64,000 bases of DNA from a virus. Positions within the stretch are counted from its first letter, which is position 1. Every line of letters begins with the position of its first letter. The position numbers were made by a program, and so were the translations under genes. The notes under the pieces were generated by a model. The model was given only the letters and a program-made list of their open reading frames with translations. It was not told where the DNA came from and did no database searches. The DNA lies in IMG/VR virus record IMGVR_UViG_3300006735_000022, positions 20,936 through 84,935 of that record; one strand, written 5' to 3'. Below, piece by piece: positions 2 through 21,283 of the stretch.

Positions 2-820
2 GTCCTGTGGTCAGGTGGTATTGATAGTACCGCAGTATTTTGGGCACTACAAAAAACTGGTCACCCATTCAATCTGCACTTTGATCCTGTTGCAGAGACA
101 GAGCATCCTTTTTTGTGGGATCTTCTCCATAAGAATAAGTTTCCCCAAGTAACTTTGTGTAATAATTATGGGATGGGACTCATTGATGATTATGCCGATG
201 ACCCAGACCATTACTTTGTTATGGGTGAACCTGGAGATAATATACACGGTGCAGGTAGGTCATTTATCTTCAGTAAAGAACAAAGGAATGCTCCATACCA
301 TGAGAATGTTCCAGAGTATATTGACAAGATGTTGTTTCAGTCAGTAATGGAGGTACTCAATAAACCTGATGCTAATTTGAAGCAATGGCATTGGGCAATG
401 AGTTACACGTGTAAATATCAATATTGTATGCTTCGTTCTATTAGAAACTTTCATCTGTATTGTTACGACCGTCCTGGTATCCCGGCAAACCTTCATCTTT
501 TTTATGACACCCCTAATTTCAACAGGTGGTCTATTACAAATCAAACAGAGAATAGTGCATGGCAAGAACATCGTGAGTATAAGATGCCCGCTAAAGACTA
601 TTGTCTAGTAAATGGTGACTCTCAAGATTATAGGGATAATAAATTGAAAGTCCCATCATCTAACAGGGAACGTTTGACTATGTTTACTAAACCTTGTTCT
701 GGTATGGTTGTAGATGAGGATTGGATGTTGGTTATCAAAAGAACTTTTGGTTCTTCAGCACCTGATATTGAATACGGTGGTAGAACTCTAAGGAACGGAG
801 AAGTAAGTAGACTACCATGA
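2..820 (+). CDS. PP-loop (N-type ATP pyrophosphatase superfamily) protein, 5'-truncated by window edge
   Basis: Frame is open upstream of the track's 113 start; from nt 2 it reads VLWSGGIDSTAVFWAL (SGGxDS PP-loop). Confidence 0.65.
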   Translation, partial: VLWSGGIDSTAVFWALQKTGHPFNLHFDPVAETEHPFLWDLLHKNKFPQVTLCNNYGMGLIDDYADDPDHYFVMGEPGDNIHGAGRSFIFSKEQRNAPYHENVPEYIDKMLFQSVMEVLNKPDANLKQWHWAMSYTCKYQYCMLRSIRNFHLYCYDRPGIPANLHLFYDTPNFNRWSITNQTENSAWQEHREYKMPAKDYCLVNGDSQDYRDNKLKVPSSNRERLTMFTKPCSGMVVDEDWMLVIKRTFGSSAPDIEYGGRTLRNGEVSRLP

Positions 821-2123: not shown

Positions 2124-2916
2124 TCGTCAGGGCAACCTGAAAGCGAAGACTGTAAAGGGTGAACTGGAGATGTTCTCTGGTCGCAATTCTGATGATGATG
2201 AACTAGGTACTGCTGGATCAAAAGCTGCCTCTGTTGTTGCTAGACGCACCAAAGGGGACGGTGATGATTACGCTAGGAAGGTTGCTACTGGTGGTCCTTC
2301 TTCTGCAGAACCCAATCCTAATTCCGCAAATGGTCAAGCTAAAGCGGCACTGCAGCAGGTGAGTCGTGAGAACCCACTCACCATTGCGTTCGATAAGTTT
2401 GACAAGGATGAAATTACTGCTAACATACTAACCACAGTGGAAGAAATTTCCGGTGGTACATACTATTATGTGTTCCCTAGCAGGGACACGAACATTCAGG
2501 AACTAAAAGATGCATATCCTGAGGTTGGCGATGCCTTCGTTGACGACCCCAATGCCGAGACCATCTACGATGTCCTCTCGTCGCTCTATGAAAACGGTTT
2601 TGATGCAATTAGTATCGTTGTACGACAGTCAAGAGCAAAAGAAATCTCAGAGTTAGCACTCAAAGCTAACGGACAACTCTACAATTATGTGATGTTGAAT
2701 GTCATCCCAGTAGATGAGCGTACTGTTCGTGAGCAGTACATCGCTGGAGACATTTTTCAGAACGGAACCATGATTGAATCTAACGGTAAAGTGGGTCAAG
2801 TTTTCCGTAGAGGTGCCAATCATTTGATTTGTATGGGAGAAAATAAACAGGTTTTTAGGGCATGGATTTCTGATGCTAAGCAGGTAGATAAGTTTCTGTT
2901 ACCCCAAGACTTCTGA
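2020..2916 (+). CDS. cyanophage cytidylyltransferase-like protein (degenerate active site), probable internal head protein
   Basis: Family-like N-terminus MKKFSTFITEA...GLVGDGHGDWYD and C-terminal REQYIAGDIF...RRGANHLI; HxGH motif absent. Confidence 0.6.
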   Translation: MKKFSTFITEARITKASQEARRLGLVGDGHGDWYDRQGNLKAKTVKGELEMFSGRNSDDDELGTAGSKAASVVARRTKGDGDDYARKVATGGPSSAEPNPNSANGQAKAALQQVSRENPLTIAFDKFDKDEITANILTTVEEISGGTYYYVFPSRDTNIQELKDAYPEVGDAFVDDPNAETIYDVLSSLYENGFDAISIVVRQSRAKEISELALKANGQLYNYVMLNVIPVDERTVREQYIAGDIFQNGTMIESNGKVGQVFRRGANHLICMGENKQVFRAWISDAKQVDKFLLPQDF

Positions 2917-2922
2917 GCACAC

Positions 2923-2943
2923 TAAATAATTGAACGGTAAATA
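2923..2943 (+). promoter_or_regulatory. tandem late promoters TAAATA
   Basis: TAAATA at 2923 and 2938, directly upstream of ATG 2955. Confidence 0.55.
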
Positions 2944-2954
2944 ACGTTCGTAAG

Positions 2955-4655
2955 ATGAGCAACCCTTGGGCACAGTCTTTTGATGACTTGCGTCGTCCTT
3001 ATCTTGAGGAGAAAAAGGATCGTGACGGCGACGGTAAAGTAGAGTCAGATTCTAAAGAGCATGCTGGATTAGTTCACAATGCTATTCAGCGTGCTAAGGG
3101 TGGCAAGCCTGACGGTAAGGACACTCGTAAAGAAGCCTTTACTATGGCTGCTGACCCTGAGAAGAGGGCAATTCCTCGTCCTACTAAGAAGGCAGAGGAT
3201 AAGAAAGGTAAGAGTTTGAAGTCTCGTGCCATCAAGGCAGTGGGAACTCAGCGTCGTCAAGACAAAGAAGTTGGTATTTCTGGTACGAAGAAGGAAGAGA
3301 CTGAGTTCGCTGGTAATTACGAAGGTCCCCTTTACGCTCCCTGGACTAAAGTAGAGGAAGGTAAGAAGAAAGGACTCTGGGACAACATCCATGCCAAGCG
3401 TAAGCGTGGTGAGAAACCTGCCAAGAAGGGTGATAAGGACTATCCCAAGACTCTGAACGTTGAGAATCAGCAGGTGGATGAAGATCTGGCAGGTATGGTT
3501 GATAAGGCAACCAAAGCAGGTCAAGCTGGTCTAGAGAAAATTGGTGTAAAAATCAATCGCACTCCGAGATCCACTGCTCGTCCTTCTCGCAAAGCCAGCG
3601 AGGTGATGCGTCAGAATAAGATGAGTAATGAGGAGCAAGAGCATGCTGATCAGGTAGAACTTCAGGGTGAGGCATACACCATCACCAATGCTGATGTAAA
3701 GGGTAACACTCCTGCATACCGCAACTACAAGGCGGGTATGAAGAGCAAGACCACCGGCAAACCAATGTACAACTTGGCACCCCATGTAAAAATGGCTGAC
3801 TCAGTTGAGTTGGAAGGTGATGCAATTGAAGAAGGCAGCATGAAGGCAGCACGTAAGAACGTGGGCGCTAGCACCTGCTGGAAAGGGTACAAGGCAAAGG
3901 GCACCAAGATGAAGGGCGGTAAGACTGTCCCCAACTGTGTCAAGGAATACTCCGACTGGCGGGAGGAGATGGGCGAAGGTTTTTTTTCCGAAGCCGCTAA
4001 GCGTCAACAGTCACTAGACATCAAGACGAGCGGCGTAAAAAATAAGGTTGAGATCAATCCCGAACTCAAGACCGAAGGTGCATGCTCCGATAAACCCATG
4101 GAACGTCTGAAGACTGACCGTGATGGTTATCGTGTTCCTCAAAAAGATGCCGATGCTGCTAAGGCACGGATCATGGCGAAGACCAAGAAGAAGCGTGAGC
4201 AGGCAAAGGAAAACATCATGAAGGGTCCTCTCCTTCCTGGTGAAGGTCGCAAGGTGTACCCCAAAGGTGCTGCTCCCAAGGCAACTGGTGCCAAACTTCC
4301 TCTTGCTAACTCCTACAATCCAATGCTGGACTCTGTAGAAGAGCAAGCACTCCAGATGATTGAGCGTACTCGTTTCGCTAAAGAGAAGGGTACAGATTCT
4401 CAGACTGGTAAAGAGTCTAAGAAAGGTGGTAAGAAACCATCCGGTGCATTTGCTGCAGTCAGTGCTGGTCTTCGTAAGTCCGGTGGCATGATGTCCTCTA
4501 GGGGTAAAGCAATCGCACCTCAAGGAAAGAAAAAAGAAAAAGGTGCCAAGGGTCCTAAAGGTGTAACTCCTGTGGATAAGATCAAGGGTCAACTTGCTAA
4601 GAAGAGAGCACCCAAACCCAACCCATACAAGGCACGTGCTGGGGAGTCCGACTGA
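2955..4655 (+). CDS. Lys-rich modular protein, probable internal head polyprotein
   Basis: 566 aa; basic modules (GLWDNIHAKRKRGEKPA, CWKGYKAKGTKMKGGKTVPNCVKE) separated by acidic linkers ending in Glu; late promoter upstream. Confidence 0.6.
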   Translation: MSNPWAQSFDDLRRPYLEEKKDRDGDGKVESDSKEHAGLVHNAIQRAKGGKPDGKDTRKEAFTMAADPEKRAIPRPTKKAEDKKGKSLKSRAIKAVGTQRRQDKEVGISGTKKEETEFAGNYEGPLYAPWTKVEEGKKKGLWDNIHAKRKRGEKPAKKGDKDYPKTLNVENQQVDEDLAGMVDKATKAGQAGLEKIGVKINRTPRSTARPSRKASEVMRQNKMSNEEQEHADQVELQGEAYTITNADVKGNTPAYRNYKAGMKSKTTGKPMYNLAPHVKMADSVELEGDAIEEGSMKAARKNVGASTCWKGYKAKGTKMKGGKTVPNCVKEYSDWREEMGEGFFSEAAKRQQSLDIKTSGVKNKVEINPELKTEGACSDKPMERLKTDRDGYRVPQKDADAAKARIMAKTKKKREQAKENIMKGPLLPGEGRKVYPKGAAPKATGAKLPLANSYNPMLDSVEEQALQMIERTRFAKEKGTDSQTGKESKKGGKKPSGAFAAVSAGLRKSGGMMSSRGKAIAPQGKKKEKGAKGPKGVTPVDKIKGQLAKKRAPKPNPYKARAGESD

Positions 4656-5716
4656 TGAAAAGTTTTAGGGAATTCCGCGAAGACGTAGAACTTACTGATG
4701 CATATGGTGATACCTTTGCCGTCATTCAGGATGTGGTAAAGGTAGAACCAATGAAACCCACATGGCAGGGCAACACAGACCTGCCTTATGCTCCAGTTTT
4801 TGACGATGGTCCTCCTTTGCAGGAGAACAACCCTCGTCGAACCGGAATCCCTAACAACCCTAATATCCTACAGAGAATTGATGCAATGCTTCCGGGCAAT
4901 GCAATGACATATCAGGGTTTCAGACAGCAAACTTACTCTCCCACCCCCTATAAAAGTCCTTATACTGGACCAAACTATACGGGTAATAGGGTAGACGTTG
5001 ATAACTATCGTGCTGGTGGTGGTAATGCTGCCATGGCAGGTGGTCAGACTGCTGATCAAGTTAGAGCACAGGGTGCTAAGAATTTGAAAGCAAGACCTAA
5101 GCAACCCAATGTTCATAATTGGACAGACAATGGCGTAAAAAATTATGCCGGTAGTCCTCCAATGAGATTCAAAGTGGGTGAATCTATCGTCCGTGAAGGA
5201 GTTGCCAAGTCACTTCAAGAAAAACCAGGTGATGGTTATCTTGGACCAACGATGAAGATCGGTGGCAAACCATATGGGATTCCAAATCCTATTCGTATCG
5301 CTCAAGATTACTCAGATACTAGACAAAGTATAGACCAAGCAAAGGTAGATTTCGCCAGGCGTCATCGTGTTGGCAACGCATCAATGCCAAAATGGAAACC
5401 TTATAACAAACAAAACAGCACTGCTACTAAGGTTCTGCTTCCTGGTTTTGAGAAAGCTCGGCAGAAGGCATCGCAATATGAATCTGCTGCATGGCAGCGT
5501 AAGGAAGGTAAGAATAAGAAGGGTGGATTGAATGAAAAAGGACGCAAATCCTACGAACGCGAGAATCCTGGTTCTGATCTCAAGGCTCCTCAACCTGAAG
5601 GGGGTCCTAGAAAGCGATCCTTCTGTGCGAGAATGGGTGGAGTCAAAGGACCAATGAAAAAACCTAACGGTGAACCTACTCGTAAGGCATTAGCACTTAG
5701 GAAGTGGAAGTGCTGA
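4655..5716 (+). CDS. modular protein with C-terminal DUF6321-like domain, probable internal head protein
   Basis: N-terminus MKSFREFRED; C-terminus AAWQRKEGKN..GGLNEKGR...SFCARM...LRKWKC. Confidence 0.6.
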   Translation: MKSFREFREDVELTDAYGDTFAVIQDVVKVEPMKPTWQGNTDLPYAPVFDDGPPLQENNPRRTGIPNNPNILQRIDAMLPGNAMTYQGFRQQTYSPTPYKSPYTGPNYTGNRVDVDNYRAGGGNAAMAGGQTADQVRAQGAKNLKARPKQPNVHNWTDNGVKNYAGSPPMRFKVGESIVREGVAKSLQEKPGDGYLGPTMKIGGKPYGIPNPIRIAQDYSDTRQSIDQAKVDFARRHRVGNASMPKWKPYNKQNSTATKVLLPGFEKARQKASQYESAAWQRKEGKNKKGGLNEKGRKSYERENPGSDLKAPQPEGGPRKRSFCARMGGVKGPMKKPNGEPTRKALALRKWKC

Positions 5717-12742: not shown

Positions 12743-13447
12743 ATGAAATTTTATTTTGACGGCGACTCATTTACCTATGGTGGAGGTTTAGAACGCCTAG
12801 CCGTAAGGCGAGAAGATTATAGGTGGTCTAAGTTAGTATGTGATCACTTCGGAGCTGAGGAAGTAAACCTATCATATGGTGGTGCTTGTAATGAAAAAAT
12901 TATGAGGCACCTGTTTACTAAACCACCTACTGAGGTTTATGATTTCTACTTTCTTCAAACTACCGTTCCTATTAGGAATGAGTTTTATGATAAGAAAAAG
13001 AAGAGGTGGACAGGATATTCACATGAACGTGATAAGCATGGTAGTGTTTATGACAGATGCATATTCAGATGGGGAGATGTAGAGGGACCTCGGTTTGCTG
13101 AGTGGATAAACTTTGGACTTAGTAGGGTTTACTCTGATGAATATGGAAGGGCTAAAGAGAGTGTTACACTCAACGCAATGAAAGCATACGTTGCATCTGT
13201 GGGACGATCAAACAGATCTTTTTTTAGCACACTACTAAAACCTATAGAGACTGACAACAAATATGACATGTACTTCAAAGGTACACACGATGCTGAACGT
13301 GGTGAAACTGAATGGCCTCCAGGACTATTCCGTTATGATAAAATACCCAACGATGGACATCCTTCTATAGAAGGTCATAAGACCATAGCAAAATATGTTA
13401 TAGATATTGTAAGTGACAGATTACGTAATGAGGGTTCAGTCTGCTAA
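12743..13447 (+). CDS. SGNH/GDSL hydrolase-like protein
   Basis: Block I FDGDSFTYG, block II NLSYGGACN, block V DGHPSIEGH. Confidence 0.7.
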   Translation: MKFYFDGDSFTYGGGLERLAVRREDYRWSKLVCDHFGAEEVNLSYGGACNEKIMRHLFTKPPTEVYDFYFLQTTVPIRNEFYDKKKKRWTGYSHERDKHGSVYDRCIFRWGDVEGPRFAEWINFGLSRVYSDEYGRAKESVTLNAMKAYVASVGRSNRSFFSTLLKPIETDNKYDMYFKGTHDAERGETEWPPGLFRYDKIPNDGHPSIEGHKTIAKYVIDIVSDRLRNEGSVC

Positions 13448-13763
13448 GGCAAAGGGTAGGAGACTACAGCAGTGGGTAAGAACTAAACTTATAGAAATGT
13501 TAGAGGTTCACCCTGAGGATGTAGAGTCTAGATCAATGGGTGCAGGTGGTGAGGATATCATCATGGCACGTGCAGCTAGACAAAAGTTTCCTTTCAGTGT
13601 AGAATGCAAGAACACAGAGAGACTAAACGTTTGGGATGCATACGACCAAGCGTGTGCTAACTCTGGTGATTACGAACCAATTCTCTTCATAAAAAAGAAT
13701 GGCAGACGACCTCTCGTTGTCCTCGATGCGGAAAGCTTTATTGGATCCCAGCGACATGAATGA
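13428..13763 (+). CDS. PD-(D/E)xK Holliday-junction-resolvase-like nuclease
   Basis: SAKAKGRRLQ...GAGGEDII...SVECKN. Confidence 0.7.
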   Translation: MRVQSAKAKGRRLQQWVRTKLIEMLEVHPEDVESRSMGAGGEDIIMARAARQKFPFSVECKNTERLNVWDAYDQACANSGDYEPILFIKKNGRRPLVVLDAESFIGSQRHE

Positions 13764-13992
13764 CTGGAGATACTCTGAAGAGCGTATGCAACTTCGTGCT
13801 GAAGTATTTCGTGCGTTGTCTCATCACCTAAATGATCATTGCAGACTTGTATATGAGTTTTGTCATGACTGGGTGAGTCAGGGTAACAAAACAACCATTG
13901 GAGTTGAACAAAGATTCCAAGAGTTCATTCGTAATCGTGCCGAAACTTTGTACACACTAACCCCCATGGAGGAACATGCAGAAAATTCTTAG
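13756..13992 (+). CDS. hypothetical protein
   Basis: MNDWRYSEERMQLR...YEFCHDWV. Confidence 0.55.
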   Translation: MNDWRYSEERMQLRAEVFRALSHHLNDHCRLVYEFCHDWVSQGNKTTIGVEQRFQEFIRNRAETLYTLTPMEEHAENS

Positions 13993-14215
13993 TCTCATGT
14001 CCATCTTTTCATTCGTAACTAGCGTAGGTGTAGTTGGCACTGCTGGTTATGTGTATGTAAACCAAGACAAAATCAAAGAGAACATCAAAGAGCAGGTCAC
14101 CAAAGGCGTTCAAGATGCTGTCGTAAGTAAATTCAATACACCTGCTCTGCCTAAAGCGACTGGTGGTGTGCTTCCTGCCATGCCTAAGGTCACTGGAGGA
14201 GCTATTCCATTCTAA
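13976..14215 (+). CDS. membrane-anchored hypothetical protein
   Basis: N-terminal TM helix; C-terminal LPKATGG/MPKVTGG repeat. Confidence 0.6.
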   Translation: MQKILSLMSIFSFVTSVGVVGTAGYVYVNQDKIKENIKEQVTKGVQDAVVSKFNTPALPKATGGVLPAMPKVTGGAIPF

Positions 14216-14239: not shown

Positions 14240-14746
14240 ATGACTGATAAGACACCAGATTCTCCTCCAGAAAAGGAGGAGAAACGAGGTTTGTTTGGTT
14301 TAGGTAAGAAGAAACCTGAGACTAAACTAGATAAGGATAAGAAAAAGGAAGAAGAGGATAAAGATCCTGATGAAAGAATGGCAGCGTTGTCTACGCTGGT
14401 TCGTCTAGGTATCTTGATTTGGTCAGGTGGTATTCTCACACTGGCATACGTCGATCTTCCAAAGGCACTCAATTTTCCTAAGCAGGATCTCGATCCGACT
14501 TTCATAGCCTCGGTCTTCACTGGGGTTTTAGCTACGTTCGGGGTTCAAACTGCTAAGAAAGGTGCCATGGCTAATGGTGGTGGTGGCATCACCAAGGCAG
14601 ATATGGAACGTCTTATCGCTGCTGCAGCACAAACAGCACCTGCACAAACCATTCGTATTGAACAAGCTCCGTTGACAATCGGAACTCAACCTCCTAATGT
14701 ATCAGAAGATGGTGCCCCTCCCGTTGTGCCCCCTAAAAAATCGTGA
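14240..14746 (+). CDS. conserved cyanophage membrane protein
   Basis: Two TM helices (LVRLGILIWSGGILTL; DPTFIASVFTGVLATFGV); TAAATA upstream. Confidence 0.65.
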   Translation: MTDKTPDSPPEKEEKRGLFGLGKKKPETKLDKDKKKEEEDKDPDERMAALSTLVRLGILIWSGGILTLAYVDLPKALNFPKQDLDPTFIASVFTGVLATFGVQTAKKGAMANGGGGITKADMERLIAAAAQTAPAQTIRIEQAPLTIGTQPPNVSEDGAPPVVPPKKS

Positions 14747-14874
14747 CTTTCGCTGATGTCCTTCTTTGGACAGCAATACCCTTTGTTCTATCCACAATAT
14801 ATTTCGGGATACGAAAGGGTCATAATAACTACTACGACTCAGAAGATTATGATGGAAATGGAACGGCTCACTAG
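14743..14874 (+). CDS. ndhP: NDH-1 small subunit NdhP-like (43 aa, not in ORF track)
   Basis: GTG start in GTGA overlap; MTFADVLLWTAIPFVLSTIYFGIRKGHNNYYDSEDYDGNGTAH: one TM helix plus the Y-D-x-x-x-Y-x-G-N-G-x-A-H C-terminus of NdhP. Confidence 0.75.
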   Translation: MTFADVLLWTAIPFVLSTIYFGIRKGHNNYYDSEDYDGNGTAH

Positions 14875-16192
14875 ACGCATCGTTATCTTCGGTGCGACTG
14901 GTGACCTTTGTAAGAGGAAACTTATTCCAGCACTGTACCAGTTGTGGAAGAAAGATCTTCTCCCTAAAGAACTTCTGATCGTAGGGTGCTCACGTCGTGA
15001 GTATACACGTGATACTTGGTTGGAATATATTGGAGACTACCCTTTAGAGTTTACTCACTGGTTAGATTTTCAATGTGCTGACCTTGATAAAAAAGAATCT
15101 CTGATGACACTGCACGATAAGAGTGCAGATACAACATATTTCTTATCTGTTCCACCGGAGAGATACGAGAATGCAATCATCAACCTCAAGGAAGCAGGGT
15201 TTCTGGATGACCCTGACCACTCCAGAGTGGTTATCGAAAAACCCTTTGGATACGACTATAAATCTGCTGATCATTTACAGTCAGTGGTGGAGCGACATAT
15301 ACGCGAGAAACAAGTTTATCGCATTGACCATTATCTTGGTAAAGATACTGTCAATAACATCCTTGCCACTCGGTTTGGCAATGTACTACTTGAACCACTC
15401 TGGAATCGCCAGTACATAGAAGAGGTTCAGATCTTTGCGACTGAAACTATTGGATGCGAAGGTAGATCACAATACTATGAAGACGCAGGTGTTGTACGTG
15501 ACATGTTGCAGAACCACATGCTACAGGTTCTGTCTCTAATTGCGATGGAAGCACCGTGTCGTATGAGTGCTGTCGAAATTCGTAGGGAGAAGGTAAAGGT
15601 TCTTGCTGCCGCACGTCTTGGTGGTAAGTTTATTACTGGTCAGTACCTAGGATACCGTGAAGAACAGGGTGTGGGTCCTGAGTCTATGACCCAAACTTAT
15701 GTTGCAGGTGATATTTACATTGATAACTGGAGGTGGGAGGGTGTACCTTTCTACTTCATGACAGGTAAGAAGATGCCTTATCAGTGTGTTGAGGTTGTTA
15801 TCAAGTTGAAAGCACCACCTGTTGGACTGTTTGAGGGTGAAACTCCTGGTCGTATTGTGATGCGTCTGCAACCACATGCACACCTCGACATTCAGATTGA
15901 TGTGAAGTCACCTGGACTTGGTGAAAATGTTGAGTTGGCAACACTCACTCACAGATATCCTGACTGGTTGGGTGTAGATGGTTATGAAAAACTATTATAT
16001 GATGCTCTTCATGGGGATCAATCTCACTTTGTTCATGCAGAAGAGGTGTTGGAATCATGGAGAATCGTTGACAATCTTCTTTGTACTGGTAAGCAGTGTC
16101 CTATCAGGACAGCACCATACGTTTACCATGAAGGACAGTGGGGACCAACTCATAAGACAGACATGATTACCAAATGGGACTATCCGGAATAG
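14849..16192 (+). CDS. zwf: glucose-6-phosphate dehydrogenase
   Basis: IFGATGDL, EKPFG, RIDHYLGK, RDMLQNH; start is one of three nearby ATGs (14849-14858). Confidence 0.95.
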   Translation: MMEMERLTRRIVIFGATGDLCKRKLIPALYQLWKKDLLPKELLIVGCSRREYTRDTWLEYIGDYPLEFTHWLDFQCADLDKKESLMTLHDKSADTTYFLSVPPERYENAIINLKEAGFLDDPDHSRVVIEKPFGYDYKSADHLQSVVERHIREKQVYRIDHYLGKDTVNNILATRFGNVLLEPLWNRQYIEEVQIFATETIGCEGRSQYYEDAGVVRDMLQNHMLQVLSLIAMEAPCRMSAVEIRREKVKVLAAARLGGKFITGQYLGYREEQGVGPESMTQTYVAGDIYIDNWRWEGVPFYFMTGKKMPYQCVEVVIKLKAPPVGLFEGETPGRIVMRLQPHAHLDIQIDVKSPGLGENVELATLTHRYPDWLGVDGYEKLLYDALHGDQSHFVHAEEVLESWRIVDNLLCTGKQCPIRTAPYVYHEGQWGPTHKTDMITKWDYPE

Positions 16193-16353
16193 CACACAGT
16201 GCAGCTAAATTTGCTGCACACGTTCTAAATAACCCTTATACTCTGGGTCTTATGGCGTGGGTATTAGTTTTCGTTCCTGTCTTAGGTATGTGGGCAGTCC
16301 ACAAATACGGATGGGAGCACTGGGAACCATTTACTAAGCGTCATGACACATAG
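16174..16353 (+). CDS. small membrane protein (59 aa, not in ORF track)
   Basis: MGLSGIAHSAAKFAAHVLNNPYTLGLMAWVLVFVPVLGMWAVHKYGWEHWEPFTKRHDT; fills the gap between neighbours. Confidence 0.6.
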   Translation: MGLSGIAHSAAKFAAHVLNNPYTLGLMAWVLVFVPVLGMWAVHKYGWEHWEPFTKRHDT

Positions 16354-16597
16354 GTGTACTGAAATCATCCCCGAACACACTGTGACAAAAGCAGAAGTAC
16401 AGGAGATGATTGATGATGCCATCAGGCAACACAATCGTAATGCATCAATGATTAGTATGGTCCTTGGGATTATATTTTTCGCCCTCTTTGCTGATGGATT
16501 CTTTAGAGTCATTGGTATGATTCCTCCCTTCCTGGGAATCGATGTCAATATTATCAAAGAAGTTGTACGGGAAGTTATTGAAAAAATTCAATCATGA
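16343..16597 (+). CDS. hypothetical membrane protein
   Basis: QEMIDDAIRQHNRNASMISMVLGIIF motif. Confidence 0.6.
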   Translation: MTHRCTEIIPEHTVTKAEVQEMIDDAIRQHNRNASMISMVLGIIFFALFADGFFRVIGMIPPFLGIDVNIIKEVVREVIEKIQS

Positions 16598-17631
16598 AAG
16601 TTGGAATCATTGGTCTAGGTAGGATGGGCGAGGGTATGTCTCGCCGCATGCTAGCAGCAGGCATCGAAGTCCATGGATACAGAAACAACTACTCAAAAGC
16701 ACAGGAACAATTTGAGAAGGGTTATCTTAGTGGGGTCACCACTTCTATTCAAACCCTGACTGAAGTAGTTCATCAATCAGATAGTCAGGTTGGCAAGGCA
16801 CCTGGCATCTTCATGATGGTAGTCCCTGCAGAAAACGTTGAGGGAACCATCGATGAGTTACTACAGTTTTGTGGTGAGGGTGATATTATTATTGATCACG
16901 GCAATAGCAACTTTGCGGATTCTCGACGGAGAGCAGAAAGGCTTTCTAAGTTGGGCATCCAATATCTTGACTGTGGCACTAGTGGTGGTGTGTATGGTTT
17001 GGACCGTGGATACTGTCTTATGGTTGGTGGTTCAGATCATGCAGTATCCGTCTGCTCTCCAATCTTTAGAGCACTCGCACCTGGTATTGCCTCTGCACCC
17101 CGTACAGATCCACTCACCCATGCAACCTCTGCAGAGTATGGGTGGTTACATTGCGGGGGTCCTGGAGCAGGTCACTTTGTGAAGATGGTCCACAACGGTG
17201 TGGAGTATGGTATAATGCAAGCGTATGCTGAAGGATTCAACATCCTAAATGCAGCAAACGATGGTAGTTCTTATGTGAAAGAGGGTGATGCAGAGGTCGC
17301 TCCGATGGCGAATCCAAAGGACTACCAATACGATATTGACTGTGCTGAGGTCGCTGAGTTATGGCGTCGTGGCAGCGTGGTTGGTAGTTGGTTATTGGAT
17401 CTTACTGCGGATGTATATCGAAGCGATCCAAAGCTTGATAAGTTCCCTGGAGGAGTTTCCGACTCCGGTGAGGGTCGCTGGACTGTTCATGCCGCTGTCG
17501 ATCTGGGTGTCCCCGCTCCTGTTATTACTGAAGCGTTGTATCAACGTTTTGGTTCTCGTAAACTGGGCGATTACGCGAACAGGGTACTGAACGGTATGCG
17601 TTATATGTTCGGTGGGCACAATGTTAGATAA
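16594..17631 (+). CDS. gnd: 6-phosphogluconate dehydrogenase (short form)
   Basis: GIIGLGRMG, DHGNS, GTSGG, GHFVKMVHNGVEYG. Confidence 0.95.
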   Translation: MKVGIIGLGRMGEGMSRRMLAAGIEVHGYRNNYSKAQEQFEKGYLSGVTTSIQTLTEVVHQSDSQVGKAPGIFMMVVPAENVEGTIDELLQFCGEGDIIIDHGNSNFADSRRRAERLSKLGIQYLDCGTSGGVYGLDRGYCLMVGGSDHAVSVCSPIFRALAPGIASAPRTDPLTHATSAEYGWLHCGGPGAGHFVKMVHNGVEYGIMQAYAEGFNILNAANDGSSYVKEGDAEVAPMANPKDYQYDIDCAEVAELWRRGSVVGSWLLDLTADVYRSDPKLDKFPGGVSDSGEGRWTVHAAVDLGVPAPVITEALYQRFGSRKLGDYANRVLNGMRYMFGGHNVR

Positions 17632-17815
17632 ATCTATTATATTAGTTGCATGTTTCACCCCACTCGTAATAATTTTTATCGTTATGAAGTTAGCAGTGTG
17701 GGTTAGTGCAACCTGGTCTGAAGAGAAGTATGTCGAAGCAGAATCCAGAAAACAACACGGACCTTATGTGGCAGATGCATATGCAGATGTTGACGAGGAG
17801 GAAGAGGAATATTGA
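17621..17815 (+). CDS. small membrane protein
   Basis: N-terminal TM helix, acidic tail. Confidence 0.55.
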   Translation: MLDKSIILVACFTPLVIIFIVMKLAVWVSATWSEEKYVEAESRKQHGPYVADAYADVDEEEEEY

Positions 17816-17957
17816 AGTAGCAAGAATTATAGATGATGCGATTACTGATTACTACTCTTCTCTAGGTCTACCTGTTCCTAATTGGAAGACAAAAAAAGAC
17901 CCTGAGTGGTGGACTAGATACCTTATAGACTTGGGTATTGAACCCCGTAATCCTTGA
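17787..17957 (+). CDS. hypothetical protein (start uncertain)
   Basis: IIDDAITDYYSSLGLPVPNWKTKKDPEWW. Confidence 0.45.
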   Translation: MLTRRKRNIEVARIIDDAITDYYSSLGLPVPNWKTKKDPEWWTRYLIDLGIEPRNP

Positions 17958-18097
17958 ACTTATTATTACGACCACTTGACAATGTAACTGACCCAGTTTG
18001 GAGTGTGATTATATCAATCATACTCCTTCTTGTTGCTGTTTTATATGTTGTGATCTATATACTAAAGATTGACCAGAAAGAAAGTGGAGATCCCTAA
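17954..18097 (+). CDS. small membrane protein (47 aa, not in ORF track)
   Basis: TTG start in TTGA overlap; MNLLLRPLDNVTDPVWSVIISIILLLVAVLYVVIYILKID. Confidence 0.55.
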   Translation: MNLLLRPLDNVTDPVWSVIISIILLLVAVLYVVIYILKIDQKESGDP

Positions 18098-18851
18098 TAT
18101 ATCAGTAAGGGGTTTTGGTATTCCAACCTTACAGGTAGGACAACTGGACATCAGAGATATCAGAACGCAGTCACCACCTGCTTGGTCTATCTCTCCACCC
18201 ACGGCAGTGCCCATCTACCCACCAGTCACTGAGAGTGTGGGTGTTCCCATTGTCAATGTTCCTGGATGTGTTGAGGCACACAGGGATAGTGGTGAGAATC
18301 AGAATCTAAAGAACGAGGATAAAGAGGGGACCTTAGTATATTGTGATGCTGGCACACCTTCTTTCAGTCCTATTGACTATGATACAAATAAACTAGACAT
18401 CAAACAGGGGACACCTCCTCCCCCTATTGTTCCACCTAGTAAGACACCGGAGCAGACGACACCACAGACTCCAGGCATACCAAAACGACCCTCATGTAAA
18501 GAGGGTGAGCAGTATAATCAAGCAAAGAGAGTTTGTGAGATCATTCAGGTACCTCCTAAGGTAGAAGAAGAGATACCTTGGACTGAGCAGTACCTACCGT
18601 CACCAGCAGCGGTAACTACTACCGCCTCAATCGCTGTAGTTGCGACGACTTCTGCACTGCTCGCAAAACCTCTCGCTGATCTTCTGTTGAAAGTGGTGAA
18701 ACCTGTAACGAAGAAGATTGTGAAGAAGATTGCCGCAATACGGAAGAAGAAGATCCCGGTACTATCGGTTTCGTCTCGCCGGGCTGAACAACGGGAGCGG
18801 AACCAGGCGATTCAGAAGTTGAAGTCCGCCCTCCGCCAGCGGAAGAGATAG
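18084..18851 (+). CDS. Pro-rich protein with C-terminal membrane anchor
   Basis: GVPIVNVPGCVEAH..YCDAGTPSF; hydrophobic TTASIAVVATTSALLA followed by a Lys/Arg-rich tail. Confidence 0.65.
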   Translation: MEIPNISVRGFGIPTLQVGQLDIRDIRTQSPPAWSISPPTAVPIYPPVTESVGVPIVNVPGCVEAHRDSGENQNLKNEDKEGTLVYCDAGTPSFSPIDYDTNKLDIKQGTPPPPIVPPSKTPEQTTPQTPGIPKRPSCKEGEQYNQAKRVCEIIQVPPKVEEEIPWTEQYLPSPAAVTTTASIAVVATTSALLAKPLADLLLKVVKPVTKKIVKKIAAIRKKKIPVLSVSSRRAEQRERNQAIQKLKSALRQRKR

Positions 18852-19660
18852 GTTGTGGAATAGTATGACGGTGTGGTCTAATAGCATCAATACTATCTAC
18901 CATTACATCTGCACAGATGGCAGCATACTTTGTTCCAGGTCTAAAATAAATTCCTGCCTTCTTCAATTCGCCACAATTTTTTAGTCTCGCAATCTCAAAG
19001 TCGAGACGTTTGTTGGCAACCAACTGTTCCTGTAATGAGATTTGAGTCTCTGCTGCTCTCTTACAACGTGCCTGTAATCCTCCATCTAGAGGTAGAGATA
19101 GTGTGGCAGAGAGACCAATGCTAGTGCTATAGTTATCTTTCTGTCCTGTGCGAACTGGTTTCCTCCAGACTTCACGTCCAGGATTGTCTGGGATACCATC
19201 TCCTTGCATCTCCATGACAGTGATAGTCATGTCTGCACCATCTTCAAACCACCTAGTACCATCTTCTTTGGTGGTGGTGTTGTAGTGTGGTTCCCAAGGA
19301 TAGTTTTTTACATTTCTCTGAACCTCAACTAACCGTCCATCAAAATCGGTCATGTCATATTGAGGTTCAAAGTACATTGACTCGAACGGATCCTTCTTGG
19401 ATTGTGCGTGTGTAATGTAAGGTGTAAAGTTGGCAGTGGGACCTTGGCAACTGATCCCTCCGCCATAAGTGTTAGTAATATATGGACCTTGTAATACCTG
19501 AATGGCTTGGTTGGTCACCGAGCCAGAGCTATTCGCTATCGGATTTGCTGTTGCACTTACACCCCCGACACCTTCCGCCAGTGTGGCAGGGGCAATCGCA
19601 AGTTGAGTTAGACATAGGACTACTGGGTAAAGATACTTGTGGTGTCGGTTACGCTTGTAA
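18619..19660 (-). CDS. exported protein resembling a single TolC/OEP repeat; true start unresolved
   Basis: Signal-peptide-like KYLYPVVLCLTQLAIAPATLA-EG; PTANFTPYIT...SIGLSATLSLPLDGG followed by a long helix; only upstream canonical start in frame is ATG 19914 (5' coordinate approximate). Confidence 0.55.
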
Positions 19661-20072
19661 CCTCGGTCACTCTTTGGATGACCGTTTGATTTGAAATGCC
19701 CGGACCTCGATACGTTTGAGTGAACTGAAACGCTTCTCCGGGATTTGTTATTTTGAACTGAGGTGAGTTTGCGAAATCCAAAGCCGACTGGGTTGAGGTT
19801 ACCTGTCCTTCGACTCCTCCCATTGGACTCACTGTCACTGTTGATGTATTGGCTGGTGGTGCTAGAGAACTGTTCCCGTTGTCCACGTTCACGCCGGTTA
19901 CGGAGTATTCCCATCCTGTTGAATAATCTATAGAGTTGATCGTTTCAGTCACCTTTGAAGTGGTTTCCGTGTGACTAGTCATGCTTCCTTGTGTAAAATT
20001 AGGCACAACTGGCACGGAATACCCTGGCGAAGCAATACTAAGCAACGCCAGTGTTGCTAGTATCTGTTTCAT
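19620..20072 (-). CDS. secreted Thr/Ser-rich beta protein
   Basis: Signal peptide MKQILATLALLSIASPGYS; VPVVPNFTQGSMTSHTET. Confidence 0.7.
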   Translation of the reverse strand: MKQILATLALLSIASPGYSVPVVPNFTQGSMTSHTETTSKVTETINSIDYSTGWEYSVTGVNVDNGNSSLAPPANTSTVTVSPMGGVEGQVTSTQSALDFANSPQFKITNPGEAFQFTQTYRGPGISNQTVIQRVTEVTSVTDTTSIFTQ

Positions 20073-20074
20073 TT

Positions 20075-20569
20075 TTACCGTACGGTAACTTCGGTAACAA
20101 ATTGGCCGGTGGCACTTGTACCAGCTCCACCCGGCGTCAAGGTAACAACACCTGCTGAAGTAATAGTACCGGCGAGGTCACCTGCAGATCCTGCTGCCGT
20201 ACTAGTTTGACTAGAGTAAGGACTCACAGCACCAACGGAAGGAGCTGTTGTGGTGATGGCATCTCCGGCAGTGTAAGAAGAACTGAAGGAGAAAGCACTA
20301 CCAGCGGTTTGCTGAGTAGCAGTGATAGTTGCAGGAGCAGCAACACCATTCGACCCGATGGTTCCCAGTCCTCCCACTACACCAGCCGTGGTGCCGTCTG
20401 AAGTCGTCACGCCGTTTCCGGAAATCGCAAGTGAGTTACCAATTCGCTGCACATTAGTTGCAGCAGCATCAACGGTGAGTTGTGTAGAGGTAGTCATGCG
20501 GTGCGTTAGGTCTGCCTTTGCGGCACCACCCATAGCCAGCAGAGCTACAATAAAAAGTAATCCTTTCAT
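20075..20569 (-). CDS. secreted Thr/Ala/Gly-rich beta protein
   Basis: Signal peptide MKGLLFIVALLAMGGAAKA; C-terminal GTSATGQFVTEVTVR. Confidence 0.7.
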   Translation of the reverse strand: MKGLLFIVALLAMGGAAKADLTHRMTTSTQLTVDAAATNVQRIGNSLAISGNGVTTSDGTTAGVVGGLGTIGSNGVAAPATITATQQTAGSAFSFSSSYTAGDAITTTAPSVGAVSPYSSQTSTAAGSAGDLAGTITSAGVVTLTPGGAGTSATGQFVTEVTVR

Positions 20570-20629
20570 TGATACTCAGATATTATGCTGTACTGTATAT
20601 ATGATATATAGATGGCGCTCTTCATTATT

Positions 20630-21283
20630 ATGAAAATTTTTCTGGACACTGCGGATACTGAAGTCATCAATCGCCACATGCACACTGGATTGATTGATGG
20701 AGTTACAACTAACCCCACATTGATGCTGAAGAGTGGTAGATGTCCTGACGATGTTTACCAGGAACTCATTGACATGGGTCTCACCGATGTCAGCATGGAG
20801 GTGGGTGGTAATGCAATGGAGATGCATGAAGAAGGTTTCCGTCTCGCCAAAAAATTCGGATCCTGTGCTACAATCAAAGTTCCATGTACCCCTGATGGTC
20901 TCTGGGTATGTAAGCAACTTTCAAGAGAACTGATCAAGGTCAACGTCACCCTGATCTTTAGTGCTGCTCAGGCAATCCTTGCTGCCAAAGCAGGTGCTAC
21001 ATACGTTTCCCCATTCGTGGGTCGCTATGATGACAACAGCATTAGTGGTCTCGAACTTGTCCGATCTATTAGTGAGTTGTATGCTCGCCAAAGTGTGAGG
21101 ACTAAGGTGCTTGCAGCATCTCTCCGTGATGTGTATAAGGTTACTCGCTGTTTCTATAATGGAGCAGACATTGTGACCATGCCGCCAGCAATTTTTGAGA
21201 AGATGTATAACCATGTTCTGACTGACGCTGGGTTGGCAATCTTCAACGATAACTTGGACGAAATCCGTAATGCGAATCATTGA
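20630..21283 (+). CDS. talC: transaldolase (TalC/Fsa type)
   Basis: IFLDTAD, GVTTNPTL, IKVP, VNVTLIFS, YVSPFVGR. Confidence 0.93.
   Translation: MKIFLDTADTEVINRHMHTGLIDGVTTNPTLMLKSGRCPDDVYQELIDMGLTDVSMEVGGNAMEMHEEGFRLAKKFGSCATIKVPCTPDGLWVCKQLSRELIKVNVTLIFSAAQAILAAKAGATYVSPFVGRYDDNSISGLELVRSISELYARQSVRTKVLAASLRDVYKVTRCFYNGADIVTMPPAIFEKMYNHVLTDAGLAIFNDNLDEIRNANH

Follow-up and report, generated by a model that had tools for sequence, protein, structure and literature searches.

What function keeps together, across cyanophage genomes, a group of genes for exported and membrane-anchored proteins for which no role has been proposed? The question is raised by a 64,000-nucleotide stretch of IMG/VR virus record IMGVR_UViG_3300006735_000022 (positions 20,936 to 84,935 of the record; hereafter "the window"), which is part of a T4-like cyanomyovirus. 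The record is an 85-kb fragment, about 45% complete, and the nearest DNA matches of the window are the Synechococcus phages S-SM2, Syn9, Syn10 and S-RIM12. Four genes of the window, which we call A to D, concern us here. On the minus strand are D (20075-20569; 164 amino acids; Syn9 gp167, T4-GC 237, phrog_564), C (19620-20072; 150 amino acids; DUF6322, Syn9 gp166, T4-GC 236, phrog_650) and B (18619-19914; 431 amino acids; Syn9 gp165, T4-GC 235, phrog_848/1755), and on the plus strand is A (18069-18851, with an alternative start at 18084; 260 amino acids; Syn9 gp164, T4-GC 234, phrog_570). All four fall in phage families of unknown function.

In our best reading, these four genes are one arm of a six-gene cyanophage-specific cassette consisting of phrog_568, DUF6450, A, D, C and B. 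We argue for an envelope function at the end of infection because the cassette combines inner-membrane with exported proteins, is expressed late, belongs to phages of one host group, has been exchanged among myo-, podo- and siphoviruses, and, in T7-like genomes, occupies the position of the holin and spanin genes of T7. The explanation that we favor, while holding it somewhat short of probable, is a late envelope-breaching (lysis or egress) module in which B would form a ring in the outer membrane. We know of no established means by which the T4-like and T7-like cyanophages open the envelope of Prochlorococcus or Synechococcus, and both burst size and the release of carbon in the sea are set by when lysis occurs. 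Few genes of unknown function in ocean viromes are as widespread as those of the cassette, each family having thousands of database members and being present in hundreds of sequenced cyanophages; if the favored explanation is true, the cassette may be how very abundant marine cyanophages breach the host envelope.

A conserved gene cluster in three types of cyanophage

In every related locus with enough flanking sequence the order D-C-B is kept and A is adjacent, in convergent orientation except in two loci, and a DUF6450 gene lies within a few kilobases of D-C-B/A in nearly all loci. The association of these genes is far beyond chance. An initial annotation, made from the letters of the window, had described three co-oriented minus-strand genes converging on a plus-strand gene and had proposed co-occurrence of the four as a check; the listing of open reading frames (ORFs) bears out the first, and the comparison of loci answers the second in the affirmative.

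The two remaining members of the cassette are small membrane proteins encoded on the plus strand, beyond the stretch (18084-20569) given in the initial annotation, so that the cassette is larger than was described there. The DUF6450 gene (14240-14746; PF20048, phrog_2714, T4-GC 218), which was recognised by searching the window with the neighbor genes of the podovirus loci, encodes a protein with two transmembrane segments and scores 118 bits against PF20048 (107 bits for the P-GSP1 homologue; cut-off 25). The phrog_568 gene (13976-14215) encodes a 79-residue protein with a single transmembrane segment and is annotated "plasmid stability"; a plasmid-stability gene was linked to the cluster by Sullivan et al. 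in 2010 (PMC3037559). In the window, zwf (14756-16192), gnd (16594-17631) and small ORFs, together spanning 14756-17631, separate these two genes from A, and talC (20612-21283) flanks the four-gene locus on its other side. In Syn9 and P-HM2 the DUF6450 and phrog_568 genes are close to A, only one or two genes away. The envelope cassette of the window's phage appears to have received the metabolic genes by insertion.

Related gene sets are found outside the myoviruses as well. The T7-like phage P-GSP1 carries on its main strand, in this order, an A-like gene, a DUF6450 gene, a C-like gene and a B-like gene, between a large ORF that we read as tail-fiber-like and the small terminase gene. The same four genes occur in this order in S-RIP2, again ending at the small terminase gene; these podoviruses thus retain a single small subunit (C-like). 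In P-HS2, an unclassified 38-kb Prochlorococcus phage that we take to be a siphovirus, all six families are present in one block (2533-5307 of the examined locus), with DUF6450, D-like, C-like and B-like genes convergent with phrog_568 and A-like genes, the latter two adjoining each other. This block, 2.8 kb long and near a tail-fiber-like gene, is the most compact cassette, and makes P-HS2 a good minimal system for experiments. The DUF6450 gene is directly upstream of a C-like or D-like gene in P-GSP1, S-RIP2 and P-HS2. When genome contigs were scanned for the cassette, only contigs from metagenome-assembled and single-amplified genomes matched, and no cellular homologue was evident; the size and identity of these contigs suggest that they are co-binned cyanophage DNA.

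The cassette itself is already known as an unannotated cluster. The genes of the Syn9 gp164-167 (T4-GC 234-237) cassette were reported in 2010 as hypothetical proteins (PMC3037559). Sullivan et al. described "five hypothetical proteins" (T4-GC 218, 219, 234, 235 and 237) together with the plasmid-stability gene, found the cluster in every cyanomyovirus studied but S-PM2, and regarded it as a mobile cassette, with no function proposed (PMC3037559). That report gave no structure, topology or function for the products, dealt with no podoviruses or siphoviruses, and did not describe the overlapping start of gp165 (PMC3037559). Full-text literature searches for Syn9 gp165, DUF6322 and DUF6450 found no paper. 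What is new here is the structural hypothesis for B, the widening of cassette membership to three phage morphotypes, and the statistics of the overlapping start. The 15-year-old "hypothetical cassette" now gives a testable hypothesis, that of an exported hairpin-helix ring with defined inner-membrane partners.

Predicted fold and self-assembly of B

The B family has 6565 homologues in the protein database, and its 426 phage records are all from cyanophages or marine viruses. Three cysteines are invariant and a fourth is present in 48 of 51 sequences. We predicted the structure of B with AlphaFold2 (AF2) from an alignment of 54 diverse homologues; residue numbers in the model are ORF numbers minus 92. 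The mean predicted local distance difference test (pLDDT) score is 71, with ten-residue blocks of the core (about 50-250) at 77-96, falling to 54-58 over the tip insertion (110-130). At the N-terminus of the predicted chain is a disordered yet highly conserved segment; after it come a very long beta-hairpin, a helix of 40 residues and a short loop bounded by Cys, with strands at 74-94, 101-111, 136-146 and 156-177 and the helix at 188-227 in model numbering. In the gene, the hairpin corresponds to codons 158-277 (19084-19443, minus strand) and the helix, which is charged and amphipathic and has block pLDDT values of 92-96, to codons 279-319 (18958-19080, minus strand).

The composition of the hairpin is what would be expected of a strand pair that crosses a membrane. 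Column statistics for the 54 homologues, taken with the AF2 model, mark ORF residues 160-168 and 261-276 as a membrane-type part in which I/L/F/V/A alternate with S/T/N/G. Charge in these two segments is 0-4% per column, the exceptions being 9% and 11% at the outward-facing residues 262 and 274, while the distal part of the hairpin is charged. The hairpin tip (codons ~188-238, minus strand) is a lineage-specific insertion and an indel hot spot, with lineages differing by 0-60 residues and the window's clade carrying an insertion of about 45 residues. In the B-like protein of the podovirus P-GSP1 the hairpin is shortened to about 10-13 residues per strand, with the alternation retained. As a separate observation on the same protein (2659-3375 of the examined locus), about 50 extra C-terminal residues match the small-protein families phrog_2738 and phrog_402, suggesting either a fusion of genes or a missed stop.

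Four copies of B are predicted to associate. The interaction prediction score from aligned errors (ipSAE) is 0.60 (runs 0.65, 0.57 and 0.60), whereas the best of three controls scores 0.00. When the tool was calibrated, 20 of 30 solved pairs and 1 of 23 single chains reached the mark, a comparison that is only rough here, having been made with two copies and the calibration's own alignments. Contacts agree in 83% or more, and partner pLDDT does not fall below 69. In the predicted assembly, strand 66-86 of one copy is antiparallel to strand 167-185 of the next (pairs 69:182, 68:183, 67:184, 71:180 and 73:178), and the helices of neighboring copies pack side by side and parallel. The geometry predicted is that of a joint beta-barrel with a helical collar. 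The initial annotation had proposed that a single hairpin-plus-helix protomer oligomerizes, to be checked by multimer prediction. The four-copy model and the charge-free alternating hairpin lend support to the oligomer itself, whereas closure of the barrel, copy number and the membrane in which it would sit do not follow from them.

The initial annotation had also likened B to a single repeat of TolC, quoting peptides that we could locate in B. TolC is a trimer with two helix-strand-strand-helix repeats per chain and helices of about 100 Angstrom. Kinship with TolC finds no support in our searches. Scanning Pfam-A with B gave no family at E<=1, and so no OEP (PF02321) match; a 54-sequence B profile searched against all PDB sequences returned nothing at E<=10, the TolC family included; and hhalign of the same profile against E. 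coli TolC gave a probability of 0.5% and an E-value of 0.11 over 26 helix columns only. We therefore rejected descent from TolC, the AF2 model having neither a long helix before the hairpin nor a second repeat. A TolC-like architecture, as distinct from descent, is nonetheless supported by prediction: in B, too, a strand ending in a Leu-Pro-x-x-Gly-type turn runs directly into a long helix, and the predicted assembly joins a beta-barrel part and a helical part from several protomers. Unlike TolC, B would have one hairpin and one 40-residue helix per chain; it has no inner-membrane pump or adaptor gene beside it and belongs to a phage-only family.

Comparisons of structure were likewise without a clear neighbor, although the extended monomer model is a poor probe for them. 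The best Foldseek match of the B model in the PDB has an E-value of 0.06, and a VIA-align wide comparison and a VIA search of the PDB gave Z-scores of at most 4.9 (helix only) and at most 4.7. The search of BFVD with B returned its own gp165 family alone, and searches of the ESM Atlas with B and C returned their own families alone. OEP and CsgG, both named in the initial annotation as families to look for, gave no Pfam match, and Foldseek against the PDB gave no fold neighbor. Weak Foldseek rows (overall E 0.6-1.3, probability at most 0.28) include aerolysin (E 0.64-0.98) and lysenin (E 1.2). Like the stems of the beta-pore-forming toxins (aerolysin, lysenin and alpha-haemolysin), B has one long charge-free, Ser/Thr-rich alternating hairpin per protomer that is predicted to pair with its neighbors, and by column statistics this hairpin is of membrane length. 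The toxins differ in several respects, however: B has no significant fold or sequence match to them and no receptor-binding or cap domain, and it has a C-terminal helix, two probable disulfides and export into the producer's own periplasm.

A probable translation start inside the preceding gene

The initial annotation had assigned signal-peptide-like N-termini to D, C and B alike. This holds for D and C; in B, however, the hydrophobic signal or anchor segment is at codons 94-114 of the ORF (19573-19635, minus strand), with a small-x-small end (ATLA before EG). Codons 1-93 (19636-19914, minus strand) form a basic, poorly conserved extension with 21 K/R against 5 D/E, and there is no in-frame ATG, GTG or TTG between codons 1 and 133. 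The same is seen in about 65 related loci, which have no canonical start near the signal peptide and a single ATG 108-138 codons upstream of the mature N-terminus, and in which an A/V-x-A site is conserved at the signal segment.

This ATG is in C, about 100 codons inside that gene. It is made by the GGA-TGG codons of Gly53-Trp54, a Gly-Trp pair that is invariant in C, and the final 295 nt of C double, in the -1 frame, as coding sequence for the N-terminal extension of B. Of 67 unique C genes, 66 use GGA for this Gly, compared with about 50% GGA at the other Gly codons of C, and in 66 of 66 genes the -1 frame is open from the ATG until C ends, compared with 0.7% under synonymous resampling of C, although the loci are related to one another and these counts are not independent events. 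Because the GGA codon is near-fixed and the -1 frame is open beyond synonymous expectation, B is apparently read from inside C in this lineage. A conserved out-of-frame overlap of about 100 codons is a clean phage example of dual coding. As the main route to B we also considered non-AUG initiation and a -1 frameshift, both of which are less likely given the near-fixed ATG. In P-GSP1, too, the B-like ORF begins inside the C-like gene, with a 112-nt overlap.

Distant homologues of B have ordinary short Sec leaders at the position of segment 94-114, and the small-x-small site is conserved; we infer for these reasons that the leader of B is cleaved and unusually long. Alternatively, the segment may be an uncleaved signal anchor tying B to the inner membrane. 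A lipoprotein reading was rejected, as the leader has no lipobox.

At its other end B overlaps A. The convergent overlap in the window is 233 nt (18619-18851), so that the Ser-rich tail of B is antisense to the basic tail of A. Most loci have an overlap of 68-311 nt; in P-HM2 it is 4 nt, and one clade, with extra DNA between the genes, has none. The tail itself (codons 352-431; 18622-18861, minus strand) is of low complexity and lineage-variable length, lies antisense to the 3' end of A, and may be a by-product of a stop-free antisense frame.

Partner proteins A, C and D

The initial annotation had described A as Pro-rich and membrane-anchored, and it does have 12% Pro and a single hydrophobic segment (~180-207), followed by a tail with 20 K/R and 2 D/E. 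Across 69 unique homologues we found PGCV and CDxGxP motifs, two further Cys (making four conserved Cys), the C-terminal hydrophobic segment and the basic tail. From the positive-inside rule and the Cys pairs, A would likely be oriented N-out/C-in, with the Pro-rich part in the periplasm; A has no leader, and for that reason the topology can only be inferred. Podovirus A-like proteins give weak but colinear matches to A, and the A-like protein of P-HS2 matches phrog_570.

Both C and D were described as small and Thr/Ser/Gly-rich, which is correct: Thr, Ser and Gly make up 43% of D (60% with Ala) and 37% of C, and both proteins are low in charge. The leader of D is residues 1-19, ending in AKA before DL, and C likewise has a hydrophobic leader with a small-x-small site. 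In the family alignments of both proteins the leaders vary while conservation sets in sharply just past the cleavage-like site, a pattern that fits cleavage. D has 5235 homologues in the protein database and C at least 8000. Neither has internal repeats.

C matches DUF6322 (PF19847) with an E-value of 1.6e-36 and 125 bits (cut-off 30.6). For D there is no PF19847.4 match, while PF19847.5 is assigned to all D homologues listed in a precomputed table. Alignment of D with C by hhalign gives an E-value of 0.0015 and a probability of only 16%, with colinear motifs. Because the D-like protein of P-HS2 matches both phrog_564 and phrog_650 and the hhalign motifs are colinear, D is a probable distant, and old, paralogue of C. 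The AF2 model of C had a pLDDT of 42 and was not used. Some GenBank records (S-RIM8 A.HR1, Syn2, S-CAM8, S-SSM4 and ACG-2014b) name D homologues "OMP1 protein", and we found no paper justifying this name for the gp167 family. A sigma-70 promoter scan gave nothing above shuffles, and the sequence upstream of D showed no clear late box of the T4 type.

Timing of expression and the case for lysis

Expression of the cassette has been recorded by strand-specific RNA sequencing of P-HM2, in which late-gene expression is highest at 4.5 h, the latent period being 8 h (PMC5082946, S2 table). In that table, PHM2_191 (DUF6450) and PHM2_192 (of the phrog_568 type, "plasmid stability") are in late cluster E in the light and late cluster D in the dark; the neighboring gene PHM2_193 and PHM2_194 (A) are in late D under both conditions; PHM2_196 (C) is in late D in the light and middle C in the dark; and PHM2_197 (D) is in late E under both (PMC5082946).

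The genes of P-GSP1 and S-RIP2 lie just upstream of the small terminase gene, and those of P-HM2 are late or middle, as would be expected of a lysis cassette judged by position. In T7 this position is held by the holin gene 17.5, beside spanins 18.5 and 18.7. The position in T7-like genomes points towards lysis, a role that was absent from the list given in the initial annotation. T4-type lysozyme (Phage_lysozyme, PF00959) had no match in any of five complete genomes, those of Syn9, P-HM2, S-SM2, P-GSP1 and S-RIP2; from this absence it would seem that the lysis systems of these phages are not the textbook ones, and it is partly for this reason that we favor a lysis or egress module. Like T7 17.5/18.5/18.7 and lambda Rz/Rz1, the cassette is expressed late and combines small inner-membrane proteins with proteins directed to the periplasm or outer membrane, and like phage lysis cassettes in general it adjoins the small terminase gene in T7-like genomes and moves between phage families that share a host.

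The mechanism that we envisage is as follows. The six-gene cassette would act on the host envelope late in infection. B would be exported by Sec, its protomer being one long amphipathic beta-hairpin followed by the 40-residue helix, and copies of B would join edge to edge into a ring that forms a beta-barrel, most likely in the outer membrane. The variable hairpin tip would face outward and a collar of parallel helices would stand in the periplasm. The inner membrane would hold the two small membrane proteins and also A, whose Pro-rich, Cys-bearing domain would be periplasmic, while C and D would serve as exported accessory subunits. The most likely task of the whole would be the final envelope breach at lysis or egress, as the functional equivalent of holin plus spanin or disruptin for the marine picocyanobacteria. 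Of this picture, the gene order, conservation, overlaps, sequence patterns and published expression timing are observed, the fold and self-assembly of B come from prediction, and the membrane location and the part in lysis are our interpretation. A more sweeping statement, which we regard as possible but doubtful, is that marine cyanophages of all three tail types share an unrecognised trans-envelope machine, in which a B outer-membrane barrel with a periplasmic helical collar, its gene started about 100 codons inside the preceding one, is coupled to DUF6450, the phrog_568 protein, gp164 and the DUF6322 subunits. Such a machine could be a third way through the Gram-negative outer membrane, beside spanins and disruptin, or a viral secretion or fiber organelle.

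A number of observations weigh against a lysis module. No cassette member matches a holin, endolysin or spanin family in Pfam, PHROG or NCBIfam, and there is no muralytic enzyme, endolysin included, within the cassette. Two-component spanins pair an i-spanin, with an N-terminal transmembrane segment and a periplasmic coiled coil, with an o-spanin that is a small lipoprotein with a lipobox; the anchor of A, however, is C-terminal and A has no leader, and the leaders of B, C and D have no lipobox Cys. The helix of B does follow an N-terminal hydrophobic segment, a likeness to Rz/Rz1 that is functional at most. In P-HM2, PHM2_195 (B) is in middle cluster C in both light and dark (PMC5082946), and S-PM2, reported in 2010 to have no cluster (PMC3037559), nevertheless lyses its host. 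The structural evidence for B is entirely predicted, the largest assembly modeled has four copies, which leaves barrel closure and stoichiometry unset, and the alternating pattern could instead bury its hydrophobic face within a soluble oligomer.

Alternative explanations

This last possibility deserves consideration in its own right. B might be a soluble, exported periplasmic oligomer, with the hydrophobic hairpin face buried in a narrow barrel or sheet, that remodels or binds peptidoglycan or an envelope complex and makes no pore. B has no fold match to any membrane barrel and no C-terminal beta-signal, and a four-copy model cannot show a lumen. Sixteen consecutive essentially charge-free residues whose polar face is S/T/N/G only are, however, typical of a membrane-spanning stem, and even the short podovirus hairpin is of membrane length, so that we think this explanation unlikely. 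Equally unlikely, in our estimation, is the one advanced in the initial annotation, that B is an outer-membrane channel exporting or anchoring C and D as a surface fiber or coat, comparable to curli or pili, for aggregation, grazer defense or surface masking. C and D are exported, low in charge, rich in Thr/Ser/Gly/Ala and always directly upstream of B, itself a predicted ring, and as in curli (CsgG with CsgA/CsgB) small exported beta-rich subunits would thus be encoded beside a putative oligomeric outer-membrane ring; the absence of a confident monomer fold for C is as expected of subunits that fold on polymerization, although this is weak evidence. Against a fiber, B, C and D match only DUF6322 in Pfam and NCBIfam, with no match to CsgG (PF03783), curlin (PF07012), CsgE/F, usher or pilin families; B is no lipoprotein, curlin repeats are absent from C and D, the podoviruses keep one small subunit only, and a fiber made mere hours before lysis brings no obvious benefit.

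The interleaving of the cassette with zwf, gnd and talC in the window, its behavior as a mobile cassette (PMC3037559) and the predicted ring of B would also be consistent with an auxiliary function, in which the phage would use B to build an outer-membrane channel and so increase the flux of nutrients or ions in the infected cell, comparable to its neighboring metabolic genes. We consider this improbable: expression is late, when uptake matters least, a porin needs no conserved inner-membrane partners or small exported subunits, and the presence of the cassette in small podovirus and siphovirus genomes with few metabolic genes argues for a core infection function. We give as little credence to superinfection exclusion or receptor masking, that is, an envelope altered against further injection or against loss of progeny on debris, which the initial annotation had included among possible roles. 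The products are envelope-targeted and the cassette occurs in phages only, and the r genes of T4, with their part in superinfection and lysis inhibition, are missing from the cyanomyoviruses (PMC2984593). PADLOC and NCBIfam gave nothing meaningful, the one PADLOC match being weak and on the phrog_568 protein. The T4 exclusion genes imm and sp are early, as known exclusion genes are; the cassette is late or middle in P-HM2, which speaks against exclusion as an early function. Least credible of all, and very improbable, is that the products are virion components with uncleaved hydrophobic N-termini. D does share late cluster E with baseplate genes in P-HM2 (PMC5082946), but the families span myo-, podo- and siphoviruses, whose virions differ, and the variable leaders with a sharp onset of conservation fit cleavage. 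In the 2010 gene table, moreover, the rows for T4-GC 234-236 read only "Hypothetical-Protein", although the meaning of the columns is not fully clear (PMC3037559).

Neighboring genes

Just upstream of the plus-strand arm of the cassette is an ORF for a RusA-like Holliday junction resolvase (phrog_244; 13413-13763). Two small plus-strand ORFs just upstream of A, at 17612-17815 (phrog_2832) and 17954-18097 (phrog_814), each encode one hydrophobic segment, and the second of these overlaps the start of A.

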